A DNA stretch of 64,000 nucleotides, from the IMG/VR virus record IMGVR_UViG_3300027668_001405, positions 73,798-137,797 of that record. One strand, written 5' to 3'. The DNA comes from a virus. The translations under genes were made by a program, and so were the position numbers. The notes beneath the pieces are model-generated. The model was not told where the DNA came from and did not search any database. It saw nothing but the letters and a program-made list of their open reading frames with translations. Numbering within the stretch: position 1 is the first letter of the stretch; each line of letters starts with the position of its first letter. This document shows positions 1 to 50,305 of this stretch, piece after piece.

Positions 1-2
1 TT

Positions 3-767
3 GAATACAAACATCATTTGTATCCTGAAGTAAACAAGCGTTGTAAAGACTTTATACAAAAATGGGGCGACAGTACAAAAGAACCTACTCGAGCAGATAC
101 AGAGCATGCACAAGGTCGCTTAGAAGAAGATTTTGAAGATGCCAATACAATTATTGATAATACTAGGCTACCTTGGGTACCAGTAAACATTTCAGTACCA
201 TGGAAGGACATTTGGTTAGAAGCTAGGCACTTGTTATACACCGAGTGCTTTACACCACACAGAACTGACGGCAGTGCAGGTTGGCTTAGTTTATGTATAC
301 ATGGCATGTCGTCTGTGCATACAAACTGTGCAGAAGATTATAACTTGCCAGACGAAGCAGAAGAAGAATTAAGCGAATGGACAGACATAGCAAAGTTCTG
401 CCCAATTACAGTTGAGTGGATGAAAGATGCAATGTTGTATGAGCAGTTTACTCGTGTAAGATTTATGTGTGTATTACCGGGTGGCTGGATTGAGCCTCAC
501 CGAGACACAGACAAAGTAGCTGGATTAGGTGCAACTAATGTTGCTATCAACAATCCAGATGGATGTAGACTAATTATGGAACAATATGGCGAGCTACCAT
601 TTACACCTGGATCTGTTTTTAAAATAAATACTGGATATAATCATATGGTATATAATGATAGTAACGAGCCACGTTTTCATATGATATTTGACGGTCGACC
701 AGATGACACGTTTAAAAGGAAAGTAAACACTCAATATAATTGGATGTTCGACAAAAAGAAGAAATAA
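3..767 (+). CDS. Asp/Asn beta-hydroxylase-like 2OG-Fe(II) oxygenase (5' partial)
   Basis: RVRFMCVLPGGWIEPHRD (HxD) and distal NHMVYN..EPRFHMIFD motifs. The frame is open to the window edge (EYKHHLYPE), so the TTG at 18 is probably not the true start. Confidence 0.8.
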   Translation, partial: EYKHHLYPEVNKRCKDFIQKWGDSTKEPTRADTEHAQGRLEEDFEDANTIIDNTRLPWVPVNISVPWKDIWLEARHLLYTECFTPHRTDGSAGWLSLCIHGMSSVHTNCAEDYNLPDEAEEELSEWTDIAKFCPITVEWMKDAMLYEQFTRVRFMCVLPGGWIEPHRDTDKVAGLGATNVAINNPDGCRLIMEQYGELPFTPGSVFKINTGYNHMVYNDSNEPRFHMIFDGRPDDTFKRKVNTQYNWMFDKKKK

Positions 768-769
768 TT

Positions 770-1822
770 ATGCCAAAGTGTTTAATGTTTAAAAATGGTG
801 TTACAATAGGACCGATCGGAAACGTTCGTCCTTGTTGTATGTACATGAATGACGACATTGAACAACGTTATAATGAAGATGGGTGGCGAGAAAAGTTTGA
901 CGAACTATACGAACAAAGTCTAACTAAATGGCTGCCTAACTGTTATGAATGTAAAGCAGAAGAAGACCGAGGTGGCAACAGTCTACGCATGGATGCTAAC
1001 AAATGGTTTGACGGTAAAGAAGGAATTCAATATTGGGATTTAAAATTGCACAACACATGTAATCTTACGTGTGTAATGTGTAATCCAATAAGCAGTAGCA
1101 AATGGCAGAAGCTAGTAAATGAGAATCCTGAAGAAGATTTCTTACGTGTTGTTAAAAGCGAAGCAAAGATTAAAACAGGGTGGCATAAAGATATACTTCC
1201 ATTAATGATGGAACAGCTATATGACACTAAGTATTTAAAGTTTACAGGCGGAGAGCCTTTCTTAATACCACATGTAAGAAAGATTATTAAACGTTTGTAT
1301 GAAGAAGAAGTATCACCAGCAGTACGACTAAGTATTATTACAAACGGCACAGTTCCAATTGATGCTGAAATGCTTAAAATGTTACTAACGTTTAAAGACG
1401 TAGTATTCCTAGTAAGCATAGATGGAATAGAAGAACGCTTTGAGTATATAAGACAAGGCGCTAACTGGAAAGAAGTAGAACAGAACCTAAAGACATTTAA
1501 GGAAATTGAGGTGAATAATAACAACTTCCACCTCAACATAAATTACTTGCCTATGTCAATAAATGCCGCACAAAACGAATCAGCAACAGAATGGGCTAAG
1601 AAGTTAAAAATTAACCTTAGTAAGAGTGTTGAAATATATAGGCCAAAGTATTTGACATATGCCAGTTTAAGTGTTAAACTAAGGGATAGATATAATATAA
1701 CCTCAGTACATGAGTATGACGAGGAGCAATATAACCAATTATTAAAACATATGGCTATAAAAGATAAGTTACTAGGCACCGACTTTAAGAGTGCTTGCCC
1801 GGAGTTCTTTGAAGATGAGTAA
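770..1822 (+). CDS. Radical SAM protein with N-terminal twitch-like domain
   Basis: N-terminal C..VRPCC..CYEC, then CNLTCVMC, FTGGEP, ITNGT, SIDG. ATG at 770 follows the upstream stop. Confidence 0.9.
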   Translation: MPKCLMFKNGVTIGPIGNVRPCCMYMNDDIEQRYNEDGWREKFDELYEQSLTKWLPNCYECKAEEDRGGNSLRMDANKWFDGKEGIQYWDLKLHNTCNLTCVMCNPISSSKWQKLVNENPEEDFLRVVKSEAKIKTGWHKDILPLMMEQLYDTKYLKFTGGEPFLIPHVRKIIKRLYEEEVSPAVRLSIITNGTVPIDAEMLKMLLTFKDVVFLVSIDGIEERFEYIRQGANWKEVEQNLKTFKEIEVNNNNFHLNINYLPMSINAAQNESATEWAKKLKINLSKSVEIYRPKYLTYASLSVKLRDRYNITSVHEYDEEQYNQLLKHMAIKDKLLGTDFKSACPEFFEDE

Positions 1823-3041
1823 AAAATTACCCAGCGATACTTTTTGTGTATTGCCATTTATGCATGCCGCAGTTAATCCTGGTGGTGGCTTTCGTGTTTG
1901 TTGTAACAGCAATCCAGCTAACAACAAGGTACTAAGAGATGACGGAAGTGGTAAAGCATATAGAATATTCAAAGACGACATTAACGAAATGTGGAACAGT
2001 CAATGGCTACAAAAGATTCGTAAGGAATTTATTGCAGGCGAACGTCCTGAAACTTGCCAGAGATGTTTCCGTGAAGAAGATGCAGGCATACGTAGTCCAC
2101 GTGCAGGTTATAATGAAAAGTGGTACAAGGAAGATGTTAAAGTAGCAGAAGTAATTCCATTAGACATACGTTATGTAGATCTACGTTTGGGTAACTTGTG
2201 CAACTTGAAGTGTCGTATGTGTAATCCATGGAGCTCTAGCATGTGGGTAAAGGATTGGAACAAAGTTACTGGAACAGCAGAGCTTACACCAAACGAACCA
2301 CTAAGCAAATCAGACCTTGAGTTTATGGAAGTAATGCAGGAATGGCCAGACCGTAAACAAACTGGTGTTAACTTTGTAGAGATTGCAAGCACTATAGAAG
2401 AAATATATTTAACAGGTGGAGAGCCTACTTTAGCTATATCGCAGTATGCATTATTTGACTATTGTATTGAGAATGATTTAGCCAGCAATATTAAACTAAA
2501 ATACAATACTAACCTAACAAACATTCCACAGAAAATGATTGACTATTGGAGTCACTTCAAAGGTGTGCAACTTAATTGTAGTATTGATGCAACAGGTGCC
2601 AGAGACAGGTACGTTAGGTATCCAAGTAGTTGGATGAAAATAGAACAAACATTTGATAAGCTATTAGCACTACCTAATGTAGGTATTCAAGTGCATTGTA
2701 CAGTACAAGTATTAAATATGTGTGCTATGAGTGAATTGTTTGATTGGACTAGAAGCAAAGGTATACCAGACAAAGATATATACTTAAACATTCTTAATCA
2801 TCCTGAGATGTACAATATTCGTACACTACCTACAGACTTAAAACAACTAGCAGAACAACGTTTACAGAATTATTTAGACATTCCAAAAGTTGCAGACTGC
2901 ATTAAGTATATGTGGGCTGAAGATTGGTATGATAAGCGTTGGCAAGAGTTTATTGACTTTAACAATAAGACAGATCAACTACAGAAAGGTAACCTACTTG
3001 AGGTGTGTCCAGAATTTACTAATTATATTGACCATAAATAG
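1815..3041 (+). CDS. Radical SAM protein with N-terminal twitch-like domain
   Basis: FCVLPF..RVCC..CQRC, DLRLGNLCNLKCRMC, LTGGEP, YNTN. GGAG at 1801 and ATG overlapping the previous stop. Confidence 0.92.
   Translation: MSKKLPSDTFCVLPFMHAAVNPGGGFRVCCNSNPANNKVLRDDGSGKAYRIFKDDINEMWNSQWLQKIRKEFIAGERPETCQRCFREEDAGIRSPRAGYNEKWYKEDVKVAEVIPLDIRYVDLRLGNLCNLKCRMCNPWSSSMWVKDWNKVTGTAELTPNEPLSKSDLEFMEVMQEWPDRKQTGVNFVEIASTIEEIYLTGGEPTLAISQYALFDYCIENDLASNIKLKYNTNLTNIPQKMIDYWSHFKGVQLNCSIDATGARDRYVRYPSSWMKIEQTFDKLLALPNVGIQVHCTVQVLNMCAMSELFDWTRSKGIPDKDIYLNILNHPEMYNIRTLPTDLKQLAEQRLQNYLDIPKVADCIKYMWAEDWYDKRWQEFIDFNNKTDQLQKGNLLEVCPEFTNYIDHK
3033..3040 (+). promoter_or_regulatory. Putative T4-like late promoter (CATAAATA)
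   Basis: Matches the TATAAATA-type motif and lies directly upstream of SD GGGGAG and the ATG at 3060. Confidence 0.5.
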
Positions 3042-3059
3042 TAGAAAGGGGAGAACAAC

Positions 3060-3740
3060 ATGGAATATTTAGATATATTAAAAAATAGAAGTACTACGTT
3101 CAGCTGGACAACCGAGATGATTCCAGATGATGTGCTACTTGAAGTATGTGAAGAAGTACATTTATATTGCCCAAGTAAGAATAAGAAAATACCTTATGTA
3201 GTTCATATAGTTGAAAATACAGAGCAAGAACAACGCAAAACAATACACTTAGCTTGTCATCGAAATACTGATAAATCTACAGCAGAAGATGGCGGCAATC
3301 CACAAGTATTAGCTCCTACCCTAATAGCATTTGTTAAACGTGAGGTTGAAGAAGCAGAAACAAGATACCAAACAATTGAGAAACGTGACGAACTAGGTAC
3401 TGCTAATACAGACAATATTGAAATTGGAATGGTTGCAGTAACATTTTTAAATGCACTTACTAGACGAGGATGGGATACAGGATTATGTCAATGTATAAGA
3501 GACAGAGACGGACTTGGAGCCTTGTTAGGTTTAGGCGGCCCAATAGATTTGTTTATTGGAGTAGGTAGACGAGAGTTAGAATCTACTGAAGGTGCTGTAA
3601 CAGAAAAAGTATTTGATGAATTTCATTGGCCAGCTTATAGAGATCCAAGAGATGACTTAATGAAGAAAATTCCATATCCGTATGGAATGAATCCGTATCC
3701 AAAACCGGAATTCAATGACGTATATAAAATTAAAAAGTAA
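3060..3740 (+). CDS. Nitroreductase-fold protein
   Basis: ILKNRSTTFSW (R-S-x-x-F FMN-binding start), CPSKN, IEIGM..GWDTGLC..LFIGVG. Confidence 0.6.
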   Translation: MEYLDILKNRSTTFSWTTEMIPDDVLLEVCEEVHLYCPSKNKKIPYVVHIVENTEQEQRKTIHLACHRNTDKSTAEDGGNPQVLAPTLIAFVKREVEEAETRYQTIEKRDELGTANTDNIEIGMVAVTFLNALTRRGWDTGLCQCIRDRDGLGALLGLGGPIDLFIGVGRRELESTEGAVTEKVFDEFHWPAYRDPRDDLMKKIPYPYGMNPYPKPEFNDVYKIKK

Positions 3741-3749
3741 AGACACACT

Positions 3750-4313
3750 ATGAGAATAATTGCAACAGGAAACCCTAACTTTGGCGTAGCAAGTGCTATC
3801 GCTGAACGATGGCCAGAAACTACATTTGTTAATAGAACAGATTGGGGCTACGATTTATGCCAAGATGGATACAAAAAGAAGCTAGCAGAAAAGACTCTTA
3901 ACTATGACGTCTTTATTAACTGTTCCGCACTATGGCAGTACCACCAAACTCTCCTACTAGATGTAGTCTATAAAAACGCTTTAAAGAACCGTAAACGACT
4001 ACATATAGTTAGTTTAGGTAGCACTACTGACCGGGCCACTAAAGGCTCTGATTGGCACTATCAGCAAGAAAAGAAAGCGTTACGTAGTACAAGCAACGCA
4101 TTGGGCTTAAAAAGCATATGGGCAGGCGGTCCTAAGGTAAGTTATGTTACATTTGGAACACTTGAGAACAATGCACACAAGCACCCAGGTAGAGCTGTAA
4201 TGCAACTAAGTGAAGCAGTAGATATGATTGAATATGTAATTAGTCTTCCAGATCATTTAAACCTAAATGAAATAAGCATGGACCCAATACAAACAGAGTG
4301 GCCGAATGTCTGA
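3750..4313 (+). CDS. Short-chain dehydrogenase/reductase-like protein
   Basis: IIATGNPNFGVA Rossmann start, VFINCS, IVSLGS, YxxxK (YQQEK). Confidence 0.75.
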   Translation: MRIIATGNPNFGVASAIAERWPETTFVNRTDWGYDLCQDGYKKKLAEKTLNYDVFINCSALWQYHQTLLLDVVYKNALKNRKRLHIVSLGSTTDRATKGSDWHYQQEKKALRSTSNALGLKSIWAGGPKVSYVTFGTLENNAHKHPGRAVMQLSEAVDMIEYVISLPDHLNLNEISMDPIQTEWPNV

Positions 4314-5484
4314 AGATAAAATGTGCTACATGCCTTGGCACGGAATTACGCTGAGTGCTAATGGCGATATTAAACCTTGTTGTCAATTTAGTAACAAAGG
4401 ACGTAGACCTAATACTGAACACGACACTATTATGGAAAACTTTAATAGTGAACGTATGCAAGAATTACGTGGACAGTTTCTAATAGGTGAACAACCTAAA
4501 GCATGTAACAGTTGTTGGGAGAGAGAAGACTTAGTAGGCAAGAGTAGACGCTTATGGTTCAATGAAAAGTTTATGAAAGACGACGAAGCTTTTCAACAAG
4601 GATACAACCCGTCAGACCTAGTAGTACCTAATCCTAAATTATATCAAGCAGATATTAACTTGTCAAACGTATGCAATTTGAAGTGTCGTATGTGTGGAAG
4701 TTGGGCCAGTAACAGTTGGTTCAAAGAAGAAATAGCACTAGCAAAAATAGACAAACGTTATGAGAAGAATGAACGTGTTGTTCCAATACAACAATACGAC
4801 TTAGAAGATTTACGCAATATGCTACCTCACTTGAAAGAAGTCAAACGTATAGACTTCAAGGGTGGCGAGCCTATGATGGCAAAGCATCACAATCAATTCC
4901 TGCAATGGCTTATTGAAGAAGATATGACAGACATAGAATTGTTTTACACTACCAACGGAACAGTACAGAATCCTAAAATTATGGACTTGCTCAAACACTT
5001 CAAACGTGTTAGTATATGTTTTAGTATAGAAGGTACTGGAGATTTATATAGATACATCAGAGGCGGTAGGTATGACATAGAAGGTTTTGAAAAATGCGTA
5101 GCAGTTTACGACAAATTAGAAAACGTACAAATTATGTTTAATGTAACATTACAGAACTATAACGTATTCAACTTGCCTGAACTACATGAGTTTTTACACG
5201 ATTTAGAAGATAAATATAACAGAGTAAGTGCTAAACATAGTTTTGGTACAATCTGTAATAAACCTGCTTACCTAAGCCCAATTAATTTACCAGACGATTT
5301 ACGTGATCAAGCAGTTGAGCGTTTATCATTATATGAAGATTTCGACCAATTGGTAAAGAGTATGAATAAGCGTGTATTCGACCCAGAACTATGGGAAGTG
5401 TTTATTAACTTTACTAACGACCTAGACAAAATGCGAGGAGACAGTGTGTTAAAATCTGTGCCTGAGCTAAAGGATCATTTTTAA
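4306..5484 (+). CDS. Radical SAM protein with N-terminal twitch-like domain
   Basis: CYMPW..IKPCC..CNSC, CNLKCRMC, FKGGEP, YTTNGT. Confidence 0.92.
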   Translation: MSEDKMCYMPWHGITLSANGDIKPCCQFSNKGRRPNTEHDTIMENFNSERMQELRGQFLIGEQPKACNSCWEREDLVGKSRRLWFNEKFMKDDEAFQQGYNPSDLVVPNPKLYQADINLSNVCNLKCRMCGSWASNSWFKEEIALAKIDKRYEKNERVVPIQQYDLEDLRNMLPHLKEVKRIDFKGGEPMMAKHHNQFLQWLIEEDMTDIELFYTTNGTVQNPKIMDLLKHFKRVSICFSIEGTGDLYRYIRGGRYDIEGFEKCVAVYDKLENVQIMFNVTLQNYNVFNLPELHEFLHDLEDKYNRVSAKHSFGTICNKPAYLSPINLPDDLRDQAVERLSLYEDFDQLVKSMNKRVFDPELWEVFINFTNDLDKMRGDSVLKSVPELKDHF

Positions 5485-6203
5485 TGCTAGTAGGAATTGA
5501 AGACAACCATGCACCCAAAGACGAGTTACTTCGAGTAGAATGGAACTTAGGCAAACGTTGTAACTATAACTGTAGCTACTGTGGTAACGAACTACATAAC
5601 AAGACAAGCGACCATATGAATTGGGAAGTGTACACAGCTACAATTGATAAAATTGTTGCGGCAGCTAATGGCAAGAAGATTAAAATTAGTTTTACAGGTG
5701 GGGAACCATTTGTACATCCACAATTTATTGATATGATGAAGTATGCTAAAGAGAATGGCGTATACAGATTAAGTGTAACTACCAACGGAAGTCCACCACC
5801 AAAGATATATAAGAAAGCATTGCCGTACTTGCATTACGTAGTAATAAGCTACCACTTTGAATTTGCTTACCACGACAAAGTTATTAATAACATTGTAGGC
5901 ATGTGGTCAGACATTCAAGAGTATCGCAAGCAAGATCAGTGGAAAGGTATGCACGTACACATTATGGCACTACCTGGAAAGCTAGCACAATGGCAAGAGA
6001 TTATAACAGAATTAAAAGACTGTGGAGTTGAATATACAATACGTAAAATTAGACCACGTGTTAACATGGCTCGAACAGGCTGGAACAAACCACATCAAGA
6101 TGGAATGTTAGGGCAACACCCTACTCACGAAGAAACCGAGAAGTATGCAGGACAATATTATAGTCCGGAAGAAGAGGAATGGCTTACTGCCCAAAATGCT
6201 TAA
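5484..6203 (+). CDS. Radical SAM core only (N-terminal part of an apparently split paralog of 10078..11265)
   Basis: VEWNLGKRCNYNCSYC, FTGGEP, TTNGS, ISYHFEF. It has no auxiliary Cys domain. Confidence 0.88.
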   Translation: MLVGIEDNHAPKDELLRVEWNLGKRCNYNCSYCGNELHNKTSDHMNWEVYTATIDKIVAAANGKKIKISFTGGEPFVHPQFIDMMKYAKENGVYRLSVTTNGSPPPKIYKKALPYLHYVVISYHFEFAYHDKVINNIVGMWSDIQEYRKQDQWKGMHVHIMALPGKLAQWQEIITELKDCGVEYTIRKIRPRVNMARTGWNKPHQDGMLGQHPTHEETEKYAGQYYSPEEEEWLTAQNA

Positions 6204-6822
6204 TCAATCAGATGACAAATTGGAAATTGAACTAACTAGCAAGTGTGCATTACAATGCCCAGCTTGTGCAAGAGTGACACAATCTGATATGAAACAAGAA
6301 TGGGATGCAGGACATTTAAGCAAAGAATTATTATTTAGAATATGTGACACTACAAACTTTCATAGATATCAATTTGTAGGTTGTTACGGAGATCCTATAT
6401 ACCATCCTGACTTTTTGGAAATATGTAAATATTTTATGGCAGCAGGTAAGAAGATACTAGTGCATACAAATGGTAGTGCAAAGCCAGAAAAGTTTTGGAA
6501 GGAAGCAGCAGACATAGTTTGGAAAGGATGTATATTTACATTCAGCGTTGATGGACTAGAAGATACTAACCACATATATCGTAAGGGTTCTAAGTGGAAG
6601 CAAATATTAACAGCAATGAAATATATGGCTAGTATACCTAGAGAAAACAGACCAACATTAGAATGGAAGTTTTTAGTATTCCCATACAATAAGCATCAAA
6701 TAGAAGAAGCACGTACACTAGCAAACGAGCTAGGGTTTACAAAGTTTGAAGCATGGGATAGTTATAGAAATGCTAATTCTTATAACGTACCAGCAGAGGA
6801 GCTTCATAACTATGTTTCATAA
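6196..6822 (+). CDS. Radical SAM core only
   Basis: IELTSKCALQCPAC, GCYGDP, HTNGS, FSVDGLEDTNHIYR, WKFLVFPYN. ATG at 6196 overlaps the upstream stop. Confidence 0.88.
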   Translation: MLNQSDDKLEIELTSKCALQCPACARVTQSDMKQEWDAGHLSKELLFRICDTTNFHRYQFVGCYGDPIYHPDFLEICKYFMAAGKKILVHTNGSAKPEKFWKEAADIVWKGCIFTFSVDGLEDTNHIYRKGSKWKQILTAMKYMASIPRENRPTLEWKFLVFPYNKHQIEEARTLANELGFTKFEAWDSYRNANSYNVPAEELHNYVS

Positions 6823-7141
6823 GAATTTAGATCCTCAGTGTAGAAAAGAGAACATGCAGGAAAAGAATAATATTCAGCTTAGTGCTACTGGTTATTTAAA
6901 ACCTTGTTGTTTTTATGGTACAAGCATTAACTGGAAACAGCTAATGACATGGGCAGACAATCGAGGACTTGATATAGAGAATTTGAATATTACTAAACAT
7001 AGTGTAGAGAAGATATATAACTCTCCATTATGGGCAAACATGTTGCTAGGACAAGTTACAGGCGACTTACCAACTCCATGTTGGGACCTGTGCAGAGTTA
7101 ATAGCACAAATAAAATAGATGTAAAAAAACATGCAAAATAG
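6812..7141 (+). CDS. Free-standing SPASM/twitch-like Fe-S domain protein
   Basis: PQC..GYLKPCCFY..PCWDLC. AGGAG SD upstream of ATG 6812. Confidence 0.75.
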   Translation: MFHKNLDPQCRKENMQEKNNIQLSATGYLKPCCFYGTSINWKQLMTWADNRGLDIENLNITKHSVEKIYNSPLWANMLLGQVTGDLPTPCWDLCRVNSTNKIDVKKHAK

Positions 7142-8438
7142 AGACCACGAACAACTAGCAATAAAGGAAGCTAAGGCCTGGTTACTCGAGCCTGGTAATA
7201 ACTTCTGTGCTATGCCGTTTATACATATGGCAATTGAAGCCACTGGCGACATACGTCCATGTTGCATGGGCAAGCCTTTAGAAGGAATGAGTATAATAGG
7301 TAGTACAGTTGCAGAACAGTTCAGGTCTCCAATAAGAGAAGAGTTTGTAGAAAAATTTAGAAACAATTCAAAGCCAGCTGAGTGTTCAGCGTGTTGGAAA
7401 GATCCTTTTATTAGAGCAAAGTTTTCAACCTCACCTGGAGCATTATCATCTACAATAAATTTTATGAACACTGGATCTATTGAGAAAGAACTAATATGGT
7501 TAGAGATTAAGCCGGGCAATAGATGTAATTTAAAGTGCAGGATATGTGGAGTACACAACAGTAGTGCATGGGCAAAAGATGCTAACTCATTACGCAATTT
7601 TAAATTTGGCGAGAATGTTCCTTTTAAAGAAAGTGAAGCATTCCAAGTAACACAAGCTGGCGAGTGGATTGAAGATGAAAACTTCTGGACTCAACTGTCT
7701 GGATTTGAGTCTATTGAGTTTTTACATTTTATGGGCGGAGAACCTTTTATGGTACCTGAACATTTTCAAATGCTAGAACACCTGGTTGCAATGCCACACT
7801 TGGATACATCAAGAATAACGTTAGCTTACAATACAAATGGCACATATTTTCCTAGCGAAGAGAACTTAGAACTATATAAGAATTTTAAGAAAGTACATAT
7901 GTCACTAAGTATAGACGACTTTGGACCTAGATTTGAATATCAACGTAAACTAGCTGAATGGGACCAAGTAAAAGAGAACCTTAGAAAGTTTGCTTTATTA
8001 GGAGAAGATGATAAGTTCTTTGTTAATCTAGATCCTACTGTAAGTAACTATAACATATTTTACATGGCAGAGATTTGGGACGAGTTCACTAAACTTGGCT
8101 TTAGGTTTCAAAGAGGTGGATTGAATCATTTTGTATTTACTGGTCCAGATGCAATTATTAATATTCCAGTTGAGATGAAGAAAATAATAACTGATAAATA
8201 TGAGTATGCACGTACAAATACAGGACTTGTTGAAGCCTATACAGTGTCAGCAATAGATTACATGAATAGTCAAAGACCAAATCCTGAAGCTTGGAGTGAC
8301 TTCATAAATAAAACTATGCACTTGGACAGTATCAGAAAAGAATCGTTTGAACAGACGTTTCCAGAGATGCATGCACTAATAAAGGGTACAGATGGTTTTA
8401 AGAGACAGATGGCTATAATGGAATCCATGAATGAATAA
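7131..8438 (+). CDS. Radical SAM protein with N-terminal twitch-like domain
   Basis: FCAMPF..IRPCC..CSAC, CNLKCRIC, FMGGEP, YNTNGT, LSIDD. Confidence 0.92.
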   Translation: MQNRDHEQLAIKEAKAWLLEPGNNFCAMPFIHMAIEATGDIRPCCMGKPLEGMSIIGSTVAEQFRSPIREEFVEKFRNNSKPAECSACWKDPFIRAKFSTSPGALSSTINFMNTGSIEKELIWLEIKPGNRCNLKCRICGVHNSSAWAKDANSLRNFKFGENVPFKESEAFQVTQAGEWIEDENFWTQLSGFESIEFLHFMGGEPFMVPEHFQMLEHLVAMPHLDTSRITLAYNTNGTYFPSEENLELYKNFKKVHMSLSIDDFGPRFEYQRKLAEWDQVKENLRKFALLGEDDKFFVNLDPTVSNYNIFYMAEIWDEFTKLGFRFQRGGLNHFVFTGPDAIINIPVEMKKIITDKYEYARTNTGLVEAYTVSAIDYMNSQRPNPEAWSDFINKTMHLDSIRKESFEQTFPEMHALIKGTDGFKRQMAIMESMNE

Positions 8439-8793
8439 TTTTAAAAACTTAATCAAGCACTATGATGATAAACCGTCTGAAGAGGATAACGCAAACAATG
8501 TTATGGCTCGTGATGAGAATGATTTCCGTGGATGGGAATGTTGGGCAGGAGTACAAAACATTACTATTAGTAATACGGGAGATGTGTACAGAGCAATATG
8601 TAAAGTGGGTGGTAAACTTGGAAACATTTATGATGGATTTGAGATGCCCCAAGAAACAATTATATGTAATAAGCCTAGATGTATTTGTTCAGCAGATGTG
8701 CAGTTATCTAAAGCGTTACCAGAGCACGTACATAAATTAAGAATAGGCAATGAATCAAACCAATTAAACTTTGATGACATATATAGATCATGA
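8431..8793 (+). CDS. Free-standing SPASM/twitch-like domain (C-terminal part of the split paralog)
   Basis: FRGWECWAG..GDVYRAIC..LGNI..ICNKPRCICSAD, collinear with the C-terminus of 10078..11265. Confidence 0.8.
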   Translation: MNNFKNLIKHYDDKPSEEDNANNVMARDENDFRGWECWAGVQNITISNTGDVYRAICKVGGKLGNIYDGFEMPQETIICNKPRCICSADVQLSKALPEHVHKLRIGNESNQLNFDDIYRS

Positions 8794-10088
8794 ACAATTA
8801 TAACAAATTTAAAGAACGAGCAATAGGCAAGCTACATGGGATGCCAGTAGACAAAGAAACATTTTGTCCACTACCATTTGTACATGTTAGCACAATGCCA
8901 CATGGTGAAGTTAAACTATGTTGTAGAGCTCAACCACCTAAGAACGGAACAAACCCTAACGTTAAGAATCCTGAGTTTAATCTTAAAGATTATTGGCACA
9001 GTGAATATATGAATGAGGTGCGTGATGACTTAATATTAGGTGTAAAGAATTCACAGTGTAGTAATTGCTGGAAGATGGAAGACAACGAAATTGTTAGTTT
9101 ACGTATGAATAGAATTACTGACTTAATGGACAACGATACATACAAACAGAATATAAACAAGTACCTAGTAGAACGTGAAGTAGATTTTAGTATTCCACTA
9201 ATTGAACTTAAACTAAGCAACGTGTGCAACTTTAAGTGTCGCATGTGTTGGCCAAAGGATAGTTCAAAGTGGGTAACAGACTGGGATAAAGTTTCTAAAT
9301 TTTACAGTGAAGGCGACCAGCGTTACATAGAAGAGATTGTAGATAGCAACGGCCTACGTAAATCTAGGGTAATGAATTTATATGAGAAGGATAAAGACTT
9401 TGTTGATCAATTACTTGAATTGATGTCAACAGTTGAAGAAATAGAATTTGCCGGAGGCGAACCATTAATGGATCCAATACATTATCGTGTATTAAACAAC
9501 ATACCAAATCCTGAGAATGTTACACTAAAATACAGCACAAACCTAAGCATTATGAAGATGGGCAAAAACAACGTAATTGACTTGTGGAAGAAGTTCAAGA
9601 GCATTAAACTTACAATTAGCATAGATGGATATAAAGATCTTAATGCTAAAATTAGACGTGGTGCTGACTGGGACCTACTAAAGCATAACATTGCACTTGT
9701 TAAAGAGCATTGTCCTAACATAGATGTAATCAAAGGATCAACATGTATTAGCGGTATGAACGCAGAAGACTTGGGCAAAACAGCTGAAGCTATTGTGTTT
9801 GAATTAGGTATACATTGGCACACAAGTCGTGTACAATGGCCCGATTTTTTACATGCTAACGTATTAAGCCCTGTACAACTAAAACGCGGTATTGATAGCT
9901 TACAGACGCTCTTAGACACCCTGCCGGGGCGTGATAACGTACCCAGACAGTTTATGATGGAAACACATATTAAAGGTGCAATGAGCTGGTTAGAGTCATG
10001 TATAGAGAAAAACGAACACCACAACAAATACACAAAATTTACTGAATTTAATGCAAAAATAACGGAGATGGATACAAATGGAAAATAA
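8790..10088 (+). CDS. Radical SAM protein with N-terminal twitch-like domain
   Basis: FCPLPF..VKLCC..CSNC, CNFKCRMC, FAGGEP, YSTN, ISIDG. Confidence 0.92.
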   Translation: MNNYNKFKERAIGKLHGMPVDKETFCPLPFVHVSTMPHGEVKLCCRAQPPKNGTNPNVKNPEFNLKDYWHSEYMNEVRDDLILGVKNSQCSNCWKMEDNEIVSLRMNRITDLMDNDTYKQNINKYLVEREVDFSIPLIELKLSNVCNFKCRMCWPKDSSKWVTDWDKVSKFYSEGDQRYIEEIVDSNGLRKSRVMNLYEKDKDFVDQLLELMSTVEEIEFAGGEPLMDPIHYRVLNNIPNPENVTLKYSTNLSIMKMGKNNVIDLWKKFKSIKLTISIDGYKDLNAKIRRGADWDLLKHNIALVKEHCPNIDVIKGSTCISGMNAEDLGKTAEAIVFELGIHWHTSRVQWPDFLHANVLSPVQLKRGIDSLQTLLDTLPGRDNVPRQFMMETHIKGAMSWLESCIEKNEHHNKYTKFTEFNAKITEMDTNGK

Positions 10089-11265
10089 AGAAGACTTGAA
10101 ATGGAGCGAATATGACTTTACTAAAACACCATACGATAAGTTGGTGCGTGTGGGTCAGCGTAATATTCTGTACCGCGACATGTTTACTGTTAGTTGGTTG
10201 CTTGGCCGTTTTTGCAACTATAATTGTAGCTACTGTTGGCCTTACGCTAGGAGTGGTAAAAAAGATCACAGACCTACTGAACTAAATTTAAAGACTATTG
10301 ATGAGATTAAACGTCAAGCACGTGAACGTGGATTTAATAGTTTCCACTTTAGTCTAAGTGGAGGCGAACCAACTTTCCATCCAGGCTACTTAGACATGTT
10401 AAAGCATCTAAGTGATGATGCACATAACACAAACTATACAAGTGTACACATGACATCAAATTGTAGTCGTAATATGAAATGGTTTAAGACATATTGTGAA
10501 TACGCAAGTAAATTCCATCGTGCAAGTATTACAGCTAGTTTGCATACTGAACATGTTAACACACCTGAGAAGATGCAAGACTTGGCAGAGAAATTAATCA
10601 TGTGTCAAGAACATGATGTACAGGTAACTATTAACATGGTTATGGTTCCTGATCTATTCCAAGAATATTATGATAATGCATTATTTTATCATAACCAAGG
10701 AATTAACGTTACGCTAAAACCTCAATCAGATCCAACAGCAAGTAAAATTGTAGATGGTTACACACCTGAGATGTTAGCTAAGTTGCACAACGGTATGCCA
10801 CAACGTAGTTACACAGAAGCTAAAGCACAACATAAGCAGTTAGTGGTTAGACCTAAGCCTACATTTAAAATTGATAAAGACGATCATTATCGTAAGCAAA
10901 CAGCGGCAGTGCCGTGGAATATGCAAGTAGAATTTAGAGACGATAAAGGTGATCCATATTACATGGACCAAGCAGAACGTTTTAATGCGTTTAACTTTAA
11001 TAAGTTTAAAGGGTGGGAATGTAGTAGTGGATATCGTAGTATTATTATCCGTGAACCTGATGGAAGTGTGAAGCGTAGTTATAGCTGTCACGATCAACCT
11101 CTAGGTAACATTGAAACAGGATTTAAGTTGTTTGATGGACCTAAGGTGTGTACAACAGATTCATGTGTTAGTAGTGCAGATAGTAAAATCCCCAAACGAG
11201 CGCCGGGGACTAAGTTGCCTTTATGGCCAGGTGATAAAACATATGAGCATGGAACGTTTGACTAA
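10078..11265 (+). CDS. Radical SAM protein with C-terminal SPASM/twitch-like domain
   Basis: SWLLGRFCNYNCSYC, LSGGEP, MTSNCS. C-terminal GWECSSG..SYSC..VCTTDSCVSSAD. Confidence 0.92.
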   Translation: MENKEDLKWSEYDFTKTPYDKLVRVGQRNILYRDMFTVSWLLGRFCNYNCSYCWPYARSGKKDHRPTELNLKTIDEIKRQARERGFNSFHFSLSGGEPTFHPGYLDMLKHLSDDAHNTNYTSVHMTSNCSRNMKWFKTYCEYASKFHRASITASLHTEHVNTPEKMQDLAEKLIMCQEHDVQVTINMVMVPDLFQEYYDNALFYHNQGINVTLKPQSDPTASKIVDGYTPEMLAKLHNGMPQRSYTEAKAQHKQLVVRPKPTFKIDKDDHYRKQTAAVPWNMQVEFRDDKGDPYYMDQAERFNAFNFNKFKGWECSSGYRSIIIREPDGSVKRSYSCHDQPLGNIETGFKLFDGPKVCTTDSCVSSADSKIPKRAPGTKLPLWPGDKTYEHGTFD

Positions 11266-11266
11266 G

Positions 11267-11737
11267 CTATTTTATGTTAGCCCACTTCTTTTCTGAACAG
11301 CCTTCTTTCTGTGCCCAACGAATAAACAATCCACACTCTCTACCATTAGCTTCAATCTCCCAAGGCAGATCCCAATAGTCTGTGGCATCACTAATCATTT
11401 GATCTTTCCACTTCCAATACTTTGCTTTACTGGCCTGTGTGTTTGAGTGTACGTAGTCAGTCATCTCTCTACGAGCATACTGTTTAACATGTACCATTTC
11501 GTGTGCAACAGTTTCTAGCATTGTACGCAAGCCTACAGTATGATCAACTTCAATAAAGAAGTCTCTATCTGTCTCACGCAAACAATATCCGTTTGCATCA
11601 CCTTTTAGTTTTGTTAGTTTAACCTCTATTCTAAGACTTGCCATACGTGGCATTAATTTCTTTATGCAATAATTAACCATAGAACGAGCATACTCACGTT
11701 GGCGAGTCTTGCCTCCTATAATTTCAATATCATTCAT
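11267..11737 (-). CDS. Putative zinc metallopeptidase (HExxH)
   Basis: ETVAHEMVHVKQY followed by YWDLPWEIEA. Confidence 0.7.
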   Translation of the reverse strand: MNDIEIIGGKTRQREYARSMVNYCIKKLMPRMASLRIEVKLTKLKGDANGYCLRETDRDFFIEVDHTVGLRTMLETVAHEMVHVKQYARREMTDYVHSNTQASKAKYWKWKDQMISDATDYWDLPWEIEANGRECGLFIRWAQKEGCSEKKWANIK

Positions 11738-12954: not shown

Positions 12955-13058
12955 TATATACCTTTCAGTTTCGTAAAGCCTGAAAATGAACGACATTTTG
13001 CTGCCTGAGATCTTTGAAAACGATTCAATCCTCTAGCTAAAAATATATCTTGTATCAT
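12954..13058 (-). CDS. Small 34-aa ORF (not in the track)
   Basis: MIQDIFLARGLNRFQRSQAAKCRSFSGFTKLKGI, with GGAGG SD, ATGA overlap upstream and TAATG overlap downstream. Confidence 0.55.
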   Translation of the reverse strand: MIQDIFLARGLNRFQRSQAAKCRSFSGFTKLKGI

Positions 13059-14137
13059 TGGGTTTCCTCCTGTTTAAGTGGATGTGCAGGATCTACATTT
13101 AAGTATTTCCCCCACTCTGCATAGTAATGACGCATACCAACTTCATCGTGTATAGTATTGTTTTCGTGTCTACCATGTAGTATGTTTCTTCGTTCTGTTC
13201 CTGGTGCCATTGCTACACCCTGTCCTGTTACTCCTAGCAAATCTTCATGTAAGTTACGACCAAATGGACCCCATATAGAGTTATGATCATTTACACGTTG
13301 CTTTCGTTCTTCTGGAGTATCTTTTAATAATCCGTATCCACGGAATTCAATTAATACGCTGTTTGGTCCTAGTGGAGTAATACTATCACTACGATACGCA
13401 CTACCACGTAGGTTAAAATTGTAACCTGGAAACAAGTCTACCATGTACCACTGATTTGGTGGAACACCTGGAAAGCTCAATGCTCCTCTATCTGCGGCTC
13501 CTTCAAACTTATCATACTGCACTTCAAAGCTACCAACATTAACATGCCCGTTGTCAAACCCTGTACATGCACGAGCAAAGTACTCAGGAGTGAATCCGGT
13601 AATTCTATTAAAGTAATGCATGTAATCGTGATAGAACTCACTGTTAGTATCATGCCATAGTTTATAGTTTGTAGGTATAATTGCTTTATGATAATGGAAC
13701 ACTTCTAGTTCCTCTGTATCAATAGCTGTATCAATACAATCAAATGCACCGTCTGTCCATTCTTCAACACTCATACTTGGTTCAGGATTTAGTGTTGTCC
13801 ATACCATGCCTCCGTGTTTTACTTCACAAGGTAATTCCTTTGCACCAACAAGATTAGCCCAGGTTGTAATACCTGCTACGCCACGTATGTTACCAGGATT
13901 AATATATGATTTAATATGGTCACCGTGATTTACTATGACTATGTTTTGAAATGCAATCTGTGATGTTCTATAGCTACCTATTTCTTTTATTTCACTTTTA
14001 TGTATAATTGGGATCCATACTTTAGCAAAGATTTCTTTAATCTCTTCTTCGTATATTTCTTGACTGCTGTAGCACTCGCTACTAATATATTCAACTGTTG
14101 GTTCTTCTAACCAATTTTTATGATTACGGGCTGGCAT
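13055..14137 (-). CDS. Ring-hydroxylating oxygenase alpha-subunit-like protein lacking the Rieske ligands
   Basis: YEEEIKEIFAKVW start, NYKLWHDTNSEFYHDYMH mononuclear-Fe motif, EDLLG. No CxH or CxxH Rieske motifs. Confidence 0.8.
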   Translation of the reverse strand: MPARNHKNWLEEPTVEYISSECYSSQEIYEEEIKEIFAKVWIPIIHKSEIKEIGSYRTSQIAFQNIVIVNHGDHIKSYINPGNIRGVAGITTWANLVGAKELPCEVKHGGMVWTTLNPEPSMSVEEWTDGAFDCIDTAIDTEELEVFHYHKAIIPTNYKLWHDTNSEFYHDYMHYFNRITGFTPEYFARACTGFDNGHVNVGSFEVQYDKFEGAADRGALSFPGVPPNQWYMVDLFPGYNFNLRGSAYRSDSITPLGPNSVLIEFRGYGLLKDTPEERKQRVNDHNSIWGPFGRNLHEDLLGVTGQGVAMAPGTERRNILHGRHENNTIHDEVGMRHYYAEWGKYLNVDPAHPLKQEETQ

Positions 14138-15508: not shown

Positions 15509-16415
15509 ATAATACCTTCGCTAAGAATTTGCTATTAGTAATTAGTTTCAATCTTGTAAACTCATCTGCACAGACAAAGGTATCATAAAACGTATTATAC
15601 AGTTCTATGTTAGGTTGGATATGTAGTTTTTGTTCACATATGTATTTATAATAATCCTTACTAGTATCCTTGTTTAGAAGTTTATCCATGTATATTATGT
15701 CGTCTTGTATCTCAACTACATCACTAATGTCTTCATCATCAATATTGAATTTAAATTCTTTAACCCATTTCTTTGTGACAATTTTATTCATAGAAGCTAG
15801 GCCTCTAACAATTGCCATCTCTGCAAGTGATACTGGCTTCTCGTCTAGCCATAGTTTAGTATCTTCTAATGGACCATCAATTTGTTCAGCTATTTTAGTT
15901 AGCACTGTGTCGTAGCTAATATCTTCATCTACTGATCCAAGATCAAATACACGCTTTAGTTTGTTTATATTACTTGCACATATTACGTTCGTACTTCCAT
16001 AATTAAAACGCTTGTTCCAATCCCAAATATATAATGCACCAGTTTGTCTTACTAAAAACTTAGGTTGATCATCTGGTAGGTTTATGTTGTACGTGCTGTG
16101 TGGTAATACAAATTTAAAATGACTGTCGAGTAAAGGTAGATCTTCTATGTCAGTACAAGGCTTTAAGGCCTTATTTAATAGTCCAATGTGATCTGGTGCC
16201 AGCTCTAGAGCTTTAAGGTTTTTGTGAATGTTGCTAGGGCCAATTACATCTTCCCCATCTTCATTTTTAAAATAGGTTTGTTTATTCCACATGTCATCTA
16301 AACTCTGTGGAAACGCACCCATGTCATGAGAGTAGGTCAGCAAGTGATCTAATACACTTGACTGCCCACACGCATTTCTATGATTTATGTTTACTAGAAG
16401 ATTATTTATTGCCAT
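15489..16415 (-). CDS. Hypothetical protein
   Basis: Long ORF directly after the clamp loader; no motif recognised. Confidence 0.7.
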   Translation of the reverse strand: MAINNLLVNINHRNACGQSSVLDHLLTYSHDMGAFPQSLDDMWNKQTYFKNEDGEDVIGPSNIHKNLKALELAPDHIGLLNKALKPCTDIEDLPLLDSHFKFVLPHSTYNINLPDDQPKFLVRQTGALYIWDWNKRFNYGSTNVICASNINKLKRVFDLGSVDEDISYDTVLTKIAEQIDGPLEDTKLWLDEKPVSLAEMAIVRGLASMNKIVTKKWVKEFKFNIDDEDISDVVEIQDDIIYMDKLLNKDTSKDYYKYICEQKLHIQPNIELYNTFYDTFVCADEFTRLKLITNSKFLAKVLCDETDY

Positions 16416-17334
16416 TAAGTGTTCTACTGATTTCAATCAATGTAGCACTTAGGTTAATCTCTGGATCGGCTACCTGTGTATGCTTAATCATGCCTTCGCG
16501 AATTGCAAGTACACAACTATCATATGTGAAGTCGTCATGTGTATATAAATCCAAGTTCTTGTATAGCCAAGTAAAGATGTCATTGTATTCATCTGCCCTT
16601 GCACTGCCTACAATAAGTTTACGTGCATCTTGTATCTTACCTGCTCTAAACAGTTCTACCATGTTAACACGCCACTCGCTTGTACTTCCACCATCTTCTG
16701 GTAGTAGTAGCTTGTTATCAACAATAGTCATTTGCACTGTGTTAATAGTTTTACGCAAGTCTGGATAGTTTGCACGAACCATTGCATCTAATGTTTCTAA
16801 GTCAAAGTCAACTTTATTGTCTGCAAGTATTTCAGCAACCCGTACTGTAAAGTCTGTTTGGTCTAATGATTCAATGTGGAATCCTTGACACCTACTGTGT
16901 AATGCAGGAATAATCATGTTAGGATAGTTACACGTTAAAATAAATCGTACACTGTGATGATACTGTTCCATAACTCCACGCAATGCCGCTTGACCTTCTG
17001 GACTAATATGATCAGCCTCATCAAGTAGAATAACTTTAAAGTCACCCCATGGCATAGTTTCACTAAACGCTGAAATCTTCTTACGAATCATTTCAACACC
17101 ATTGTCTCGACTAGCGTTAATGTAAAGTACATCTGCTGGTTCTAGGCCCAACTCTTTAATTAGTACTTTAGCTAGTGTAGTTTTACCTGTGCCAGGACTA
17201 CCACTAAACAATAGATGAGGAATGCCTTTATCGTCAATCCAGTTTTGCACTTGCTTACGCTGTGCTTCATCTTTAAATACGTACTCTTTTACATTGTCTG
17301 GTCGATACTTTTCAACCCATAAATCTCTAGCCAT
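16402..17334 (-). CDS. gp44: Clamp loader AAA+ subunit (T4 gp44 / RFC small subunit-like)
   Basis: LWVEKYRP, GSPGTGKT, NASRDNG, ILLDEAD, ALHSRC. Confidence 0.95.
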   Translation of the reverse strand: MARDLWVEKYRPDNVKEYVFKDEAQRKQVQNWIDDKGIPHLLFSGSPGTGKTTLAKVLIKELGLEPADVLYINASRDNGVEMIRKKISAFSETMPWGDFKVILLDEADHISPEGQAALRGVMEQYHHSVRFILTCNYPNMIIPALHSRCQGFHIESLDQTDFTVRVAEILADNKVDFDLETLDAMVRANYPDLRKTINTVQMTIVDNKLLLPEDGGSTSEWRVNMVELFRAGKIQDARKLIVGSARADEYNDIFTWLYKNLDLYTHDDFTYDSCVLAIREGMIKHTQVADPEINLSATLIEISRTLNGNK

Positions 17335-18110: not shown

Positions 18111-18320
18111 TTACCACCATCCTAATGTTCTACCGTTGCCGGCTATAATTGCCATACAAGTTGCAACGTGTAGTACTATCCAAAATGTTCTAAACGCTAG
18201 TGCCTTTTTAACATCACTTTGGAGAATAGGCAAAAATTCTGGCTTGTCCTCGTCTGTAATCCCAATTGGCATACCTACTGTTCTAGCCCATACTTTTAAG
18301 AATCTTCGTTGCCCACTCAT
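18111..18320 (-). CDS. Small membrane protein
   Basis: KVWARTVG.. with a C-terminal TM; coupled to the prs stop. Confidence 0.55.
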   Translation of the reverse strand: MSGQRRFLKVWARTVGMPIGITDEDKPEFLPILQSDVKKALAFRTFWIVLHVATCMAIIAGNGRTLGWW

Positions 18321-19267
18321 TAAATCTTATGTGTAAACAAACTGCTTACACTTTCTTCATTACTTACTCTTCGAATTGCTTCACCAAACATAGTTGATAC
18401 ACTTACTACTCGTGTTTTCTTACAATTGCTTGGACAGCTAAATTCAATACTATCTGTAATAACAAGTTCTTCAAGAGCACTGTCTTCTACTTTCTGACAT
18501 GCTTTATTAGTCAGTACACCGTGTGTGATATAAGCTCGTACACTTAATGCACCTGCGTCCATAATTGCTTGTGCGGCATTACATAACGTTCCACCACTAT
18601 CAATAATGTCGTCTACTAGAATAGCATGTTGTCCTTCAACAACACCAATCAACCCCATAACTTCACTCTCACCAGCTCGTGGTCGACGTTTGTCTACAAT
18701 AGCAATATCACCACCAAACATATCTGCAAATTTACGAGCTCGTACTGTACCGCCTGCATCAGGACTTACAAATACTGTACCAGCACTAGTGTCTACATTA
18801 TATTTAATATCTTTTGCGAATGCAATGCGTGATGTTAAATCATCAACAGGAATATCAAAGAAGCCCTGTATCTGTCCTGCGTGTAAATCCATTGTAAGGA
18901 TTCTATCTGCACCGGATTCAGTAATTAGGTTTGCTACTAGTTTTGCTGTAATAGGTGTGCGACTTGCACTTTTACGATCTTGTCGAGCGTAACCAAAGTA
19001 AGGGATAACTGCTGTGATACGTCTAGCACTGCTACGTTTAGCGGCGTCTATCATTATCATTAGTTCCATTAGGTTGTCGTTAACAGGTGTACTTGTTGAT
19101 TGTATGATGAAAACATCCTCGCCTCTAATGTTTTCGTTAAACTCAACACTAGTCTCGCCGTCTGGAAAAGACTTAATTTCAGCTGGTACAAGTGTCGCAA
19201 AACAATGGTCCGCAATTTTGGTTGCCATTTCAATGTTACTGTTGCCTGCGATTATTTTCATCTTCAT
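18320..19267 (-). CDS. prs: Ribose-phosphate pyrophosphokinase
   Basis: [47 protein letters not shown]. Confidence 0.97.
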
Positions 19268-22538: not shown

Positions 22539-22934
22539 TTATTTAGATACGTTAACTTCACTAGCTAACTTATACGCTGAGTCATTAGCTTCTATTTTAT
22601 CCATATCAAAGTTTACGCTTTCTCCACATCCACAACTACTGCTTGATGCTGGATTAACTACTTCTAACATGGTACCCATAAGGTCTTGTTTTAGTTCCAG
22701 TGTCGTTCCAAATAAGAACATAATGCTTGCACTGTCAACGGCCATTTTGTGCCCGTTATCCATTATTATAACATGATCTGCTTTAGTGTCAAGCTCTGAT
22801 TCTTCTTTTAATTTCCATTCATAACTAAATCCTGCACAACCACCGCCACGTAATCCTAATACAGGAACTTTGTTTTCGTTCATTTCACTTATATTAGTTA
22901 AGTGGTGCATTGCTTTGTCTGTTACTTTTATCAT
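22539..22934 (-). CDS. iscA: A-type Fe-S carrier (IscA/HesB family)
   Basis: GGGCAGFSY and NP..SSCGCGES. Confidence 0.93.
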   Translation of the reverse strand: MIKVTDKAMHHLTNISEMNENKVPVLGLRGGGCAGFSYEWKLKEESELDTKADHVIIMDNGHKMAVDSASIMFLFGTTLELKQDLMGTMLEVVNPASSSSCGCGESVNFDMDKIEANDSAYKLASEVNVSK

Positions 22935-50279: not shown

Positions 50280-50305
50280 AGTTTTACTTCCTTTTGTATA
50301 CAGTA

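Follow-up and report, generated by a model that had tools for sequence, protein, structure and literature searches.

Positions 770-11265 of the window analysed here, a stretch of 64,000 nucleotides, hold a packed series of genes for radical S-adenosylmethionine (SAM) enzymes together with candidate flavin enzyme and reductase genes (Table 1). The window covers bases 73798-137797 of a 137,797-bp IMG/VR virus record that is rated ~40% complete, and its T4-type replication and nucleotide genes support the assignment of the source as a fragment of an uncultured marine T4-like jumbo phage. A motif scan detects CxxxCxxC in eight plus-strand open reading frames (ORFs) of positions 770-11265 and in four minus-strand ORFs elsewhere in the window; these 12 radical SAM genes, and two additional cysteine-domain ORFs among the first eight, had all been recognized in an initial annotation made from the letters alone. 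On the contig as a whole there are at least 23 radical SAM genes, the majority of them in a single operon, and 15 of the 23 exceed the cut-off of the N-terminal-twitch family, N_Twi. An open frame at 63746-64000 (+) with a CRICCRIC... run is a source of false CxxxCxxC matches and is probably a short tandem DNA repeat, not a gene.

The initial annotation regarded this stretch as one unit. ORF calling identifies it instead as the distal third of a plus-strand operon of ~30 kb (contig ~55-85 kb) that starts ~17-19 kb upstream of the window and runs unbroken, with all intergenic gaps at most 47 nt; within 770-11265 the genes overlap or sit at most 18 nt apart, as had been described. No transmembrane segments occur in g92-g125, so that all operon proteins are predicted to be soluble. 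The part of the operon upstream of the window adds six N_Twi genes, a nucleosidase-like gene, two amidinotransferases, the pyridoxal phosphate (PLP)-type gene g107 and the paralogous genes g111 and g112. A megablast search of window positions 1-11300 against the phage collection gave no matches.

All eight radical SAM ORFs of the stretch pass the Pfam Radical_SAM model PF04055 (gathering threshold 29.5 bits) at 32.6-56.3 bits. The NCBIfam model N_Twi_rSAM, NF033640 (curated cut-off 170 bits), is exceeded by nine window genes, five in the operon (g114, g115, g118, g122, g124) and the four outlying ones, and the scores of all N_Twi genes, nine in the window and 15 on the contig, span 192-419 bits; g119, g120 and g125, at 44-47 bits, are not members. 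In addition to the score, the nine genes share a C...CC...CxxC module placed N-terminal to the CxxxCxxC core. Both this arrangement and the family, which the initial annotation had named, are thereby borne out, and NF033640 itself is a subfamily-level model without assigned function.

Membership of known cofactor pathways such as those of MoaA, PqqE or NirJ, an outcome that the initial annotation had considered damaging to its proposal, was checked. Known cofactor and maturase equivalogs (MoaA, PqqE, NirJ, AhbC/D, anSME, mycofactocin and tungsten maturase) reach at best 20-61 bits against cut-offs of 231-650, and no MoaB/C/D/E, PqqA-D or heme d1 partner genes were seen in the ORF sets. Models for maturases of peptides that are made on the ribosome and then modified (RiPPs) also score far under their cut-offs. 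The viperin-type model (NF038283, cut-off 180 bits) scores 63.9 bits at best, with g119, and a partial match to a QueE-type function is far under its cut-off. To judge from sequence, the radical SAM genes described here thus map to none of the known cofactor pathways. A search of the ESM Atlas retrieved viral twitch radical SAM clusters only.

Table 1. Radical SAM genes, partner genes and T4-type genes in the window (coordinates are window positions)
Gene	Assignment	Position	Strand	Evidence
g113	Putative Fe(II)/2-oxoglutarate (2OG) oxygenase, Asp/Arg-hydroxylase (AspH/LpxO) family	3-767 (5' end 94 nt before window)	+	PF05118 42.8 bits, HxD...H
g114	N-terminal-twitch radical SAM, class A, core	770-1822	+	NF033640 195.7 bits, PF04055 52.5 bits
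g115	N-terminal-twitch radical SAM, class A, core	1815-3041	+	NF033640 379.6 bits
g116	Nitroreductase-fold (flavin) enzyme, accessory	3060-3740	+	PF00881 24.3 bits, cut-off 23.5 (marginal)
g117	Short, divergent reductase of short-chain dehydrogenase/reductase (SDR) type, core	3750-4313	+	Motifs and profile against PDB
g118	N-terminal-twitch radical SAM, class A, accessory module	4306-5484	+	NF033640 314.2 bits
g119	Split class C radical SAM subunit with core only, pairs with g123	5484-6203	+	PF04055 56.3 bits
g120	Split class B radical SAM subunit with core only, pairs with g121	6145-6822	+	PF04055 40.8 bits
g121	Twitch-type Fe-S subunit	6812-7141 (ORF open from 6746; likely ATG 6812)	+	SPASM 21.8 bits, cut-off 21.5
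g122	N-terminal-twitch radical SAM, class A, accessory module	7131-8438	+	NF033640 272.1 bits
g123	C-terminal Cys domain, probable detached end of g125-type enzyme	8431-8793	+	Aligns to g125 C-terminus
g124	N-terminal-twitch radical SAM, class A, accessory module	8790-10088	+	NF033640 297.3 bits
g125	Class C radical SAM enzyme, catalytic core with fused C-terminal Cys domain; core gene, last in operon	10078-11265	+	PF04055 53.2 bits
	gp44-like clamp-loader ATPase	16402-17334	-	T4-type
	Ribose-phosphate pyrophosphokinase	18320-19267	-	T4-type
	A-type Fe-S cluster carrier	22623-22931	-	PF01521 39.1 bits, cut-off 26.3
	Family B DNA polymerase	41212-43905	-	T4-type
g186	Outlying N-terminal-twitch radical SAM, adjoins DNA polymerase	44366-45598	-	NF033640 216.6 bits
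g211	Outlying N-terminal-twitch radical SAM	58889-60121	-	NF033640 356.8 bits
g212	Outlying N-terminal-twitch radical SAM	60105-61280	-	NF033640 198.7 bits; 54% identity to g214
g214	Outlying N-terminal-twitch radical SAM	61598-62755	-	NF033640 218.0 bits

Conservation was followed over 15 related IMG/VR phage loci, orthologs of g114 and g116 being counted at 40% identity or more. Genes g106, g107, g109-g113 and g115 are present in 15/15 loci, as is a gene at the g114 position (at least 40% identical in 8/15); g117 and g125 are each found in 13/15, g118 in 8/15 and a g116 ortholog in only 2/15. Hence g114, g115, g117 and g125 form the core of the stretch in related phages, with g116 and g118-g124, about half of its length, as an optional module. 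Every radical SAM ortholog in these loci retains CxxxCxxC. More than 2000 homologs of g115 were found, most of them on contigs of marine origin whose length reaches about 250 kb, and five relative phages have 7-25 family matches each; a tblastn search with g125 against cultured phages gave no matches. The cultured jumbo phage Vibrio phage K566 (L020, record 161548-168284) carries four N_Twi genes, three annotated as radical SAM and one as hypothetical, and the cultured Ralstonia phage RsoM2USA (L021) carries one, RsoM2USA_349, whose neighbours on the two sides are homologous to g28 and g29; a homolog of the epimerase/dehydratase is found 7 kb away.

All-against-all BLAST sorts the radical SAM genes into three architectures. 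Class A, the N_Twi genes, comprises 15 paralogs of 20-34% pairwise identity, whose alignment places C11, C29/C30, C81 and C84 N-terminal to the core C129xxxC133xxC136, with GGE invariant. A classical SPASM domain has seven Cys, holds two auxiliary clusters and is C-terminal, whereas the class A module has 4-5 conserved Cys and is N-terminal. In g106 (contig 66072-67325; L001:12072-13325) the CC pair of the twitch module is replaced by PDIIY and the other Cys are kept; both related phages and Bdellovibrionia have this gene conserved. In class B the core (~225 aa) comes first and a twitch-like ORF of its own (~110 aa) comes next, an arrangement seen in three pairs (g120+g121, g61+g62, g8+g7), with g26 as the fused form. 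Class C is represented by g125, a core with a C-terminal Cys domain, and by its split form, g119+g123, in which g119 is 36% identical to the N-terminus and g123 35% identical to the C-terminus of g125.

The two 'free' SPASM/twitch genes of the initial annotation are thus accounted for in a different way: instead of standing alone, g121 and g123 are probably detached auxiliary-cluster subunits of the split enzymes g120+g121 and g119+g123, an assignment based on co-occurrence, bacterial adjacency and complex prediction. Pieces of the g121 type have four invariant Cys (C...C(C)...CxxxC); those of the g123 type have three (GWEC...C....C), and g123 matches the C-terminus of STM4011 weakly. Among the 15 related loci, g119 and g123 co-occur in an identical set of eight and g120 and g121 in the same three (3/3), and a g119-like and a g123-like gene are adjacent in a Bdellovibrionia genome. 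The predicted g120+g121 complex scores 0.87, compared with 0.00 for the best control, on a procedure whose mark is reached by 58/80 solved complexes and 2/110 mismatched pairs; runs agree in at least 65% of contacts and partner predicted local distance difference test (pLDDT) values are at least 80. Since g120 and g121 resemble the halves of solved SPASM/twitch enzymes, the score may reflect that likeness. On the chromosome of the same Bdellovibrionia genome (L025:8783-9892 (-), equivalent to L106:10475-11584), a twitch ORF comes first and its core follows in frame, with only TAG-ATG between them, the opposite of the phage order of core, then twitch. Such an in-frame twitch-TAG-ATG-core arrangement could be a step before fusion into the N-terminal-twitch architecture.

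A bacterial counterpart of the phage operon is found among the Bdellovibrionota. One genome per prokaryote species was scanned with an alignment of orthologs and with two patterns (GNLCNLKC, MC[NG]P...) that bias which bacteria appear; the scan returned 80 loci, the large majority in Bdellovibrionota metagenome-assembled genomes (MAGs), and five such genomes hold 12-33 matches each in tandem arrays of three to seven. A family member is present in 26/121 sampled Bdellovibrionota genomes compared with 0/14 control genomes. In one Bdellovibrionia genome, G001, a chromosomal cluster of ~30 kb adjoins rpoD and dnaG and contains homologs of g103, g104, g106, g107, g109, g110, g111, g113 (two copies), g115 and g118, and also of g119+g123, g122 (two copies), g124, g211 and g61+g62. 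The g115 protein is 46% identical to its G001 ortholog. In a quick maximum-likelihood tree, which has several long branches, eight phage paralogs pair one to one with G001 paralogs at Shimodaira-Hasegawa-like approximate likelihood ratio test (SH-aLRT) values of 98-100; the values for individual genes are 99 for g122 (with two G001 orthologs), 100 for g124 and 99 for g211. This pairing indicates that the paralogs probably predate the split between phage and bacterium, and that they would stand for distinct, ancient steps rather than redundant copies.

Sugar-related genes accompany some of the bacterial clusters. At the edge of the G001 cluster lies a gene of the UDPGP family (UTP-sugar-1-phosphate uridylyltransferase; L105:1-1551, 66 bits), of which no homolog was found on the phage contig, and a GT1/GT28 glycosyltransferase is located inside another Bdellovibrionales cluster. 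In the 1.9 Mb genome G004, N_Twi genes form tandem arrays of three to six (L102:3541-12780, L103:4616-10003, L104:2011-8773), the first two of which end in a g125-like radical SAM gene; the main-group members of the arrays are 40-88% identical, and within L102 and L104, at 55-88%, they are recent duplicates. Small ORFs beside the bacterial arrays were considered as precursors and look spurious or transposase-like, and in G001 the 187-aa ORF located after the ortholog of g115 shows no homology to g117.

The chromosomal setting bears on one possible explanation of the operon, namely that it hypermodifies phage DNA or nucleotide precursors, for instance with an elaborate base side chain or sugar that counters host restriction. 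The variability of the accessory genes between relatives would fit such an arms race, thymidine hypermodification pathways include radical SAM, PLP and flavin enzymes, and one N_Twi gene adjoins the DNA polymerase. However, the orthologous set is chromosomal in Bdellovibrionia, beside rpoD and dnaG and without phage context, the operon has no base-exchange, kinase or DNA-binding enzyme, and the matches to viperin and QueE models are partial and weak. We consider DNA as the target very improbable.

The genes that surround the radical SAM paralogs point to a tailoring pathway. The oxygenase that the initial annotation placed among them is real by its family match, although it lies just ahead of the stretch and is cut by the window edge; it did not err on the nitroreductase-fold gene, which passes its model narrowly, or on the SDR. 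The g117 protein has no Pfam match but carries TGxxxG, NxxA, S and YxxxK; its ortholog alignment retains TGxxxG, N57, S91, Y104 and K108, with Y104 lost in a distant Bdellovibrionales-MAG homolog (L037), and a profile made from it matches almost exclusively SDRs in the PDB (best 8e-5) over an alignment that spans the catalytic region; with the Rossmann TGxxxGxG and S...YxxxK motifs, g117 can be classed as a putative SDR. The amidinotransferase genes of the operon are g101 and g104, and g104 (contig 63958-65025) matches HsvA (9e-26), StrB1 (1e-18), SxtG and AGAT. Fold-type-I PLP motifs are retained by g107 (D174, S199, K202, R210). No family was found for g103 in Pfam and NCBIfam scans, g116 has no matches in the PDB by sequence, and PDB sequence and profile searches with g107, g111, g112 and g116 gave nothing usable. 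The model of g111 combines an N-terminal domain of GT-A-like glycosyltransferase fold (residues 13-200, Z 8-10.1 with many GT-A enzymes) with a C-terminal domain of methyltransferase-like fold (Z up to 11.7); g111 and g112 have no Pfam match, and the only conserved motif seen in them is W-x-D/E-G, where a GT-A metal site would be DxD. A GT-B glycosyltransferase and an epimerase/dehydratase are encoded elsewhere on the contig.

Supply genes complete the set. The contig encodes MetK, the SAM synthetase (421 bits), the A-type Fe-S cluster carrier and, in the upstream part of the operon, g99, which resembles nucleosidases for methylthioadenosine (MTA), S-adenosylhomocysteine (SAH) and 5'-deoxyadenosine. 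With these genes the phage itself would supply SAM, the Fe-S cluster and the clean-up of an inhibitory by-product, 5'-deoxyadenosine, by g99.

Several other genes were noted at the borders of the operon and beyond. A 156-aa ORF at window 11267-11737 (-) converges on the end of the operon, the two stop codons being 1 nt apart. Its sequence includes HExxH and matches Peptidase_M30 weakly, and it is kept downstream of the operon in related phages. Upstream of the cluster (contig 49594-54163; L002:15594-20000) are genes for an HtrA-like protease of trypsin/PDZ type, an AAA ATPase and a protein with DUF2201 metallopeptidase/VWA features. Beyond the operon, oxygenase-like genes are found at 13055-14137 (-), with a weak, sub-cut-off match to the Ring_hydroxyl_A catalytic domain (22.9 bits), and at 29986-30936 (-), with a weak TauD-like PHROG match.

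Taken together, we infer that the operon encodes a soluble multi-step pathway in which a sugar or cyclitol would be edited by radical chemistry and then aminated, amidinated, hydroxylated, reduced and passed on by glycosyl transfer; we would give this reading a probability of roughly 45%. A small, hydroxyl-rich scaffold is suggested by the amidinotransferases of small-molecule type, the PLP enzyme, the Fe/2OG oxygenase, the SDR and the flavin enzyme, and sugar editing by a series of indirect links that recur in different settings: the g111 domains, the UDPGP gene of G001, the bacterial GT1/GT28 gene, and two GT-A proteins with a PAP2 phosphatase in the Campylobacter phage CP220. The GT-B glycosyltransferase and the epimerase/dehydratase encoded elsewhere on the contig count as further links to sugar. 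The initial annotation had proposed an assembly line of divergent paralogs that acts on virion proteins, glycans or a small molecule. Its multi-step character fits, because the paralogs are old, non-redundant and paired one to one with bacterial orthologs, and among its targets the evidence leans towards carbohydrate.

In such a pathway, each radical SAM enzyme would cleave SAM reductively at its CxxxCxxC cluster, and the resulting 5'-deoxyadenosyl radical would abstract H from the substrate at an unactivated C-H, with the twitch cluster serving in electron transfer or substrate binding. Separate paralogs would take care of separate positions or steps, such as alcohol-to-ketone oxidation, epimerization, deoxygenation or C-C chemistry. 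The PLP enzyme g107 could aminate ketones, g101 and g104 could convert the amines to guanidines, and g113, g117 and g116 may add further steps; the paired proteins g111 and g112, with GT-A-like and methyltransferase-like domains, could transfer or methylate the product. The scaffold would be a nucleotide sugar or cyclitol that is handed to an acceptor, with g114, g115, g117 and g125 as core steps and g116 and g118-g124 as optional late tailoring. Aminoglycoside pathways share such logic: BtrN, a twitch radical SAM dehydrogenase, works with an aminotransferase, StrB1 carries out amidination, and AprD4/AprD3 deoxygenation.

Structure prediction leaves the substrate class wide. The AlphaFold2 model of g115 (pLDDT 93.9) starts with a beta-hairpin at 17-27 followed by helices, and its core matches anSME (4k36, Z 13.1), SkfB (6efn, 12.6), BlsE (7vob, 12.0), viperin (11.5) and MoaA (1tv7, 11.2) about equally, so that the fold names no substrate. 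The operon might instead modify peptides or proteins (for example of virion or host, or a RiPP-like precursor), each paralog introducing a crosslink, an epimerization or an oxidation at its own site. The majority of characterized SPASM/twitch enzymes are peptide-directed, anSME, SkfB, CteB, SuiB and ChlB are among the structures most similar to the core, many RiPP maturase models of NCBIfam match in part, and RiPP pathways also use PF05118 hydroxylases, nitroreductase-fold dehydrogenases and SDRs; many protein targets would also suit the Bdellovibrionales arrays, with their recent tandem duplication (55-88% identity) and lack of biosynthetic neighbours. Yet neither the phage operon nor the bacterial arrays have a small, precursor-like ORF beside them, small or distant precursors being possible; there is no leader-binding domain of the RiPP recognition element (RRE) type by Pfam, the N-terminus being the twitch domain, and leader peptidase and exporter are absent. 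Moreover, the amidinotransferase homologs of solved structure are all small-molecule enzymes, and the likeness of the core to peptide maturases does not exceed that to BlsE, viperin and MoaA. A peptide or protein target is unlikely on this balance.

The amidinotransferases also raise the possibility of a free, diffusible small molecule, such as a guanidino aminocyclitol or a polyamine-like or nucleoside-like compound, that acts as a toxin, signal or host-takeover factor and is attached to no glycan. The nearest solved relatives, HsvA, StrB1 and SxtG, are all toxin or antibiotic enzymes, radical SAM, aminotransferase and amidinotransferase together follow aminoglycoside-type logic, and the proteins are all soluble. 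On the other hand, g111 and g112 are core genes that, together with the glycosyltransferases of the bacterial and CP220 versions, point to transfer to an acceptor, and no exporter or self-resistance gene was seen. A free metabolite is, in our estimate, decidedly unlikely.

Several observations weigh against the sugar or cyclitol pathway that we favour. The nearest solved cores are as often peptide-modifying as sugar or nucleotide enzymes, all of them tied; the phage operon contains no nucleotide-sugar enzymes, and no acceptor, flippase or exporter is visible; and the tandem N_Twi arrays of Bdellovibrionales sit amid housekeeping genes (AsnB-like, PhoH, GGDEF), without sugar genes. The g107 protein matches the class I/II (amino-acid-type) aminotransferase model weakly, at 25.5 bits, and does not belong to the sugar aminotransferase family, and the GT-A assignment of g111 stems from one medium-confidence model (pLDDT 74.6) whose Z is barely above a background of 7-8.

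Taken a step further, the N-terminal-twitch paralogs might be at least a dozen distinct catalysts of a single, undescribed pathway that Bdellovibrionota have in common with an abundant lineage of marine jumbo phages and that makes a new class of multiply C-H-functionalized, aminated and guanidinylated sugar or cyclitol and puts it on a macromolecule, for example of the virion or the cell surface. This is a speculative proposal, with the odds against it; if true, it would reveal radical carbohydrate chemistry without characterized precedent, and the origin of the N-terminal architecture would be visible in the split and permuted twitch subunits. The reactions of radical SAM enzymes include some that rank among the hardest in biology, and a set of 15 N_Twi members represents a large blind spot. 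That a virus devotes ~30 kb, along with genes for SAM, Fe-S clusters and by-product removal, to such chemistry, and that predatory bacteria keep the same orthologous set, argues that the product must matter for infection or the cell surface. Experimental handles are at hand in the defined core and accessory genes, the split pairs, cultured phages with N_Twi genes (K566, RsoM2USA) and deletable bacterial clusters. Should the product be a new sugar decoration, it would be relevant to how phages and hosts recognize each other in the ocean and to the discovery of enzymes.

Related but smaller gene sets have been reported before. No paper was found on the N_Twi family, nor any functional study in the literature on Bdellovibrio or jumbo phages and radical SAM enzymes. 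Timms et al. 2010 (PMC2853527) described the Campylobacter phages CP220 and CPt10 with 11-12 radical SAM genes and a 'glycine amidinotransferase', function unassigned. As in the T4-like CP220, class B and C radical SAM genes stand in one operon with a pentein-fold amidinotransferase: g120 is 28-30% identical to its CP220 homologs and g119 is also homologous (gp083, gp084 and gp081 for the two), and the amidinotransferase g104 is 23% identical to gp086 (7e-22). In contrast, CP220 has no match to the N_Twi query g115 and no protein of its module has a class A gene as its best match; the class B enzymes of CP220 are of the fused, not the split, form; its module is followed by the two GT-A proteins and the PAP2 phosphatase; and the present cluster is about three times the size of that module. 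Nishimura et al. 2017 (PMC5332604) found 12 radical SAM genes and an A-type Fe-S carrier in the marine T4-like TARA_ERS488813_N000010 and read them as virus-encoded Fe-S metabolism; that paper gives gene counts, without family, architecture, partner enzymes or a bacterial counterpart, and the likeness is one of description. A 2025 paper on cyanophage S-SCSM2R (PMC12801897) read a trio of radical SAM, aminotransferase and amidinotransferase genes as 'antibiotic synthesis genes'. None of the three papers goes on to a functional assignment.

Among characterized pathways, those of aminoglycosides and aminocyclitols resemble the operon on paper, with a radical SAM enzyme that carries a single auxiliary cluster, a PLP protein of aminotransferase-like kind, an amidinotransferase of StrB1 type and an SDR. 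The N_Twi Cys spacing, C-x17-C...CxxC, presumably resembles that of the BtrN twitch ligands. However, the twitch is N-terminal here and C-terminal there, there is no sequence membership in those families, g107 falls outside the DegT type of sugar aminotransferases, and no inositol or 2-deoxy-scyllo-inosose synthase was seen. With the solved SPASM/twitch enzymes anSME, SkfB, BlsE and MoaA, the partial TIM barrel of the g115 core superposes over 199-224 residues, but the matches cover only residues ~102-376 at Foldseek TM values of 0.3-0.5, and the auxiliary domain is permuted to the N-terminus, an architecture found in none of the solved structures. Overall, a known, unexplained phenomenon occurs here in a variant that is larger and has a distinct structure, smaller phage blocks of radical SAM and amidinotransferase genes having been published since 2010; what is new is the load of 15-23 such genes in one phage and their one-to-one orthology with Bdellovibrionia paralogs.

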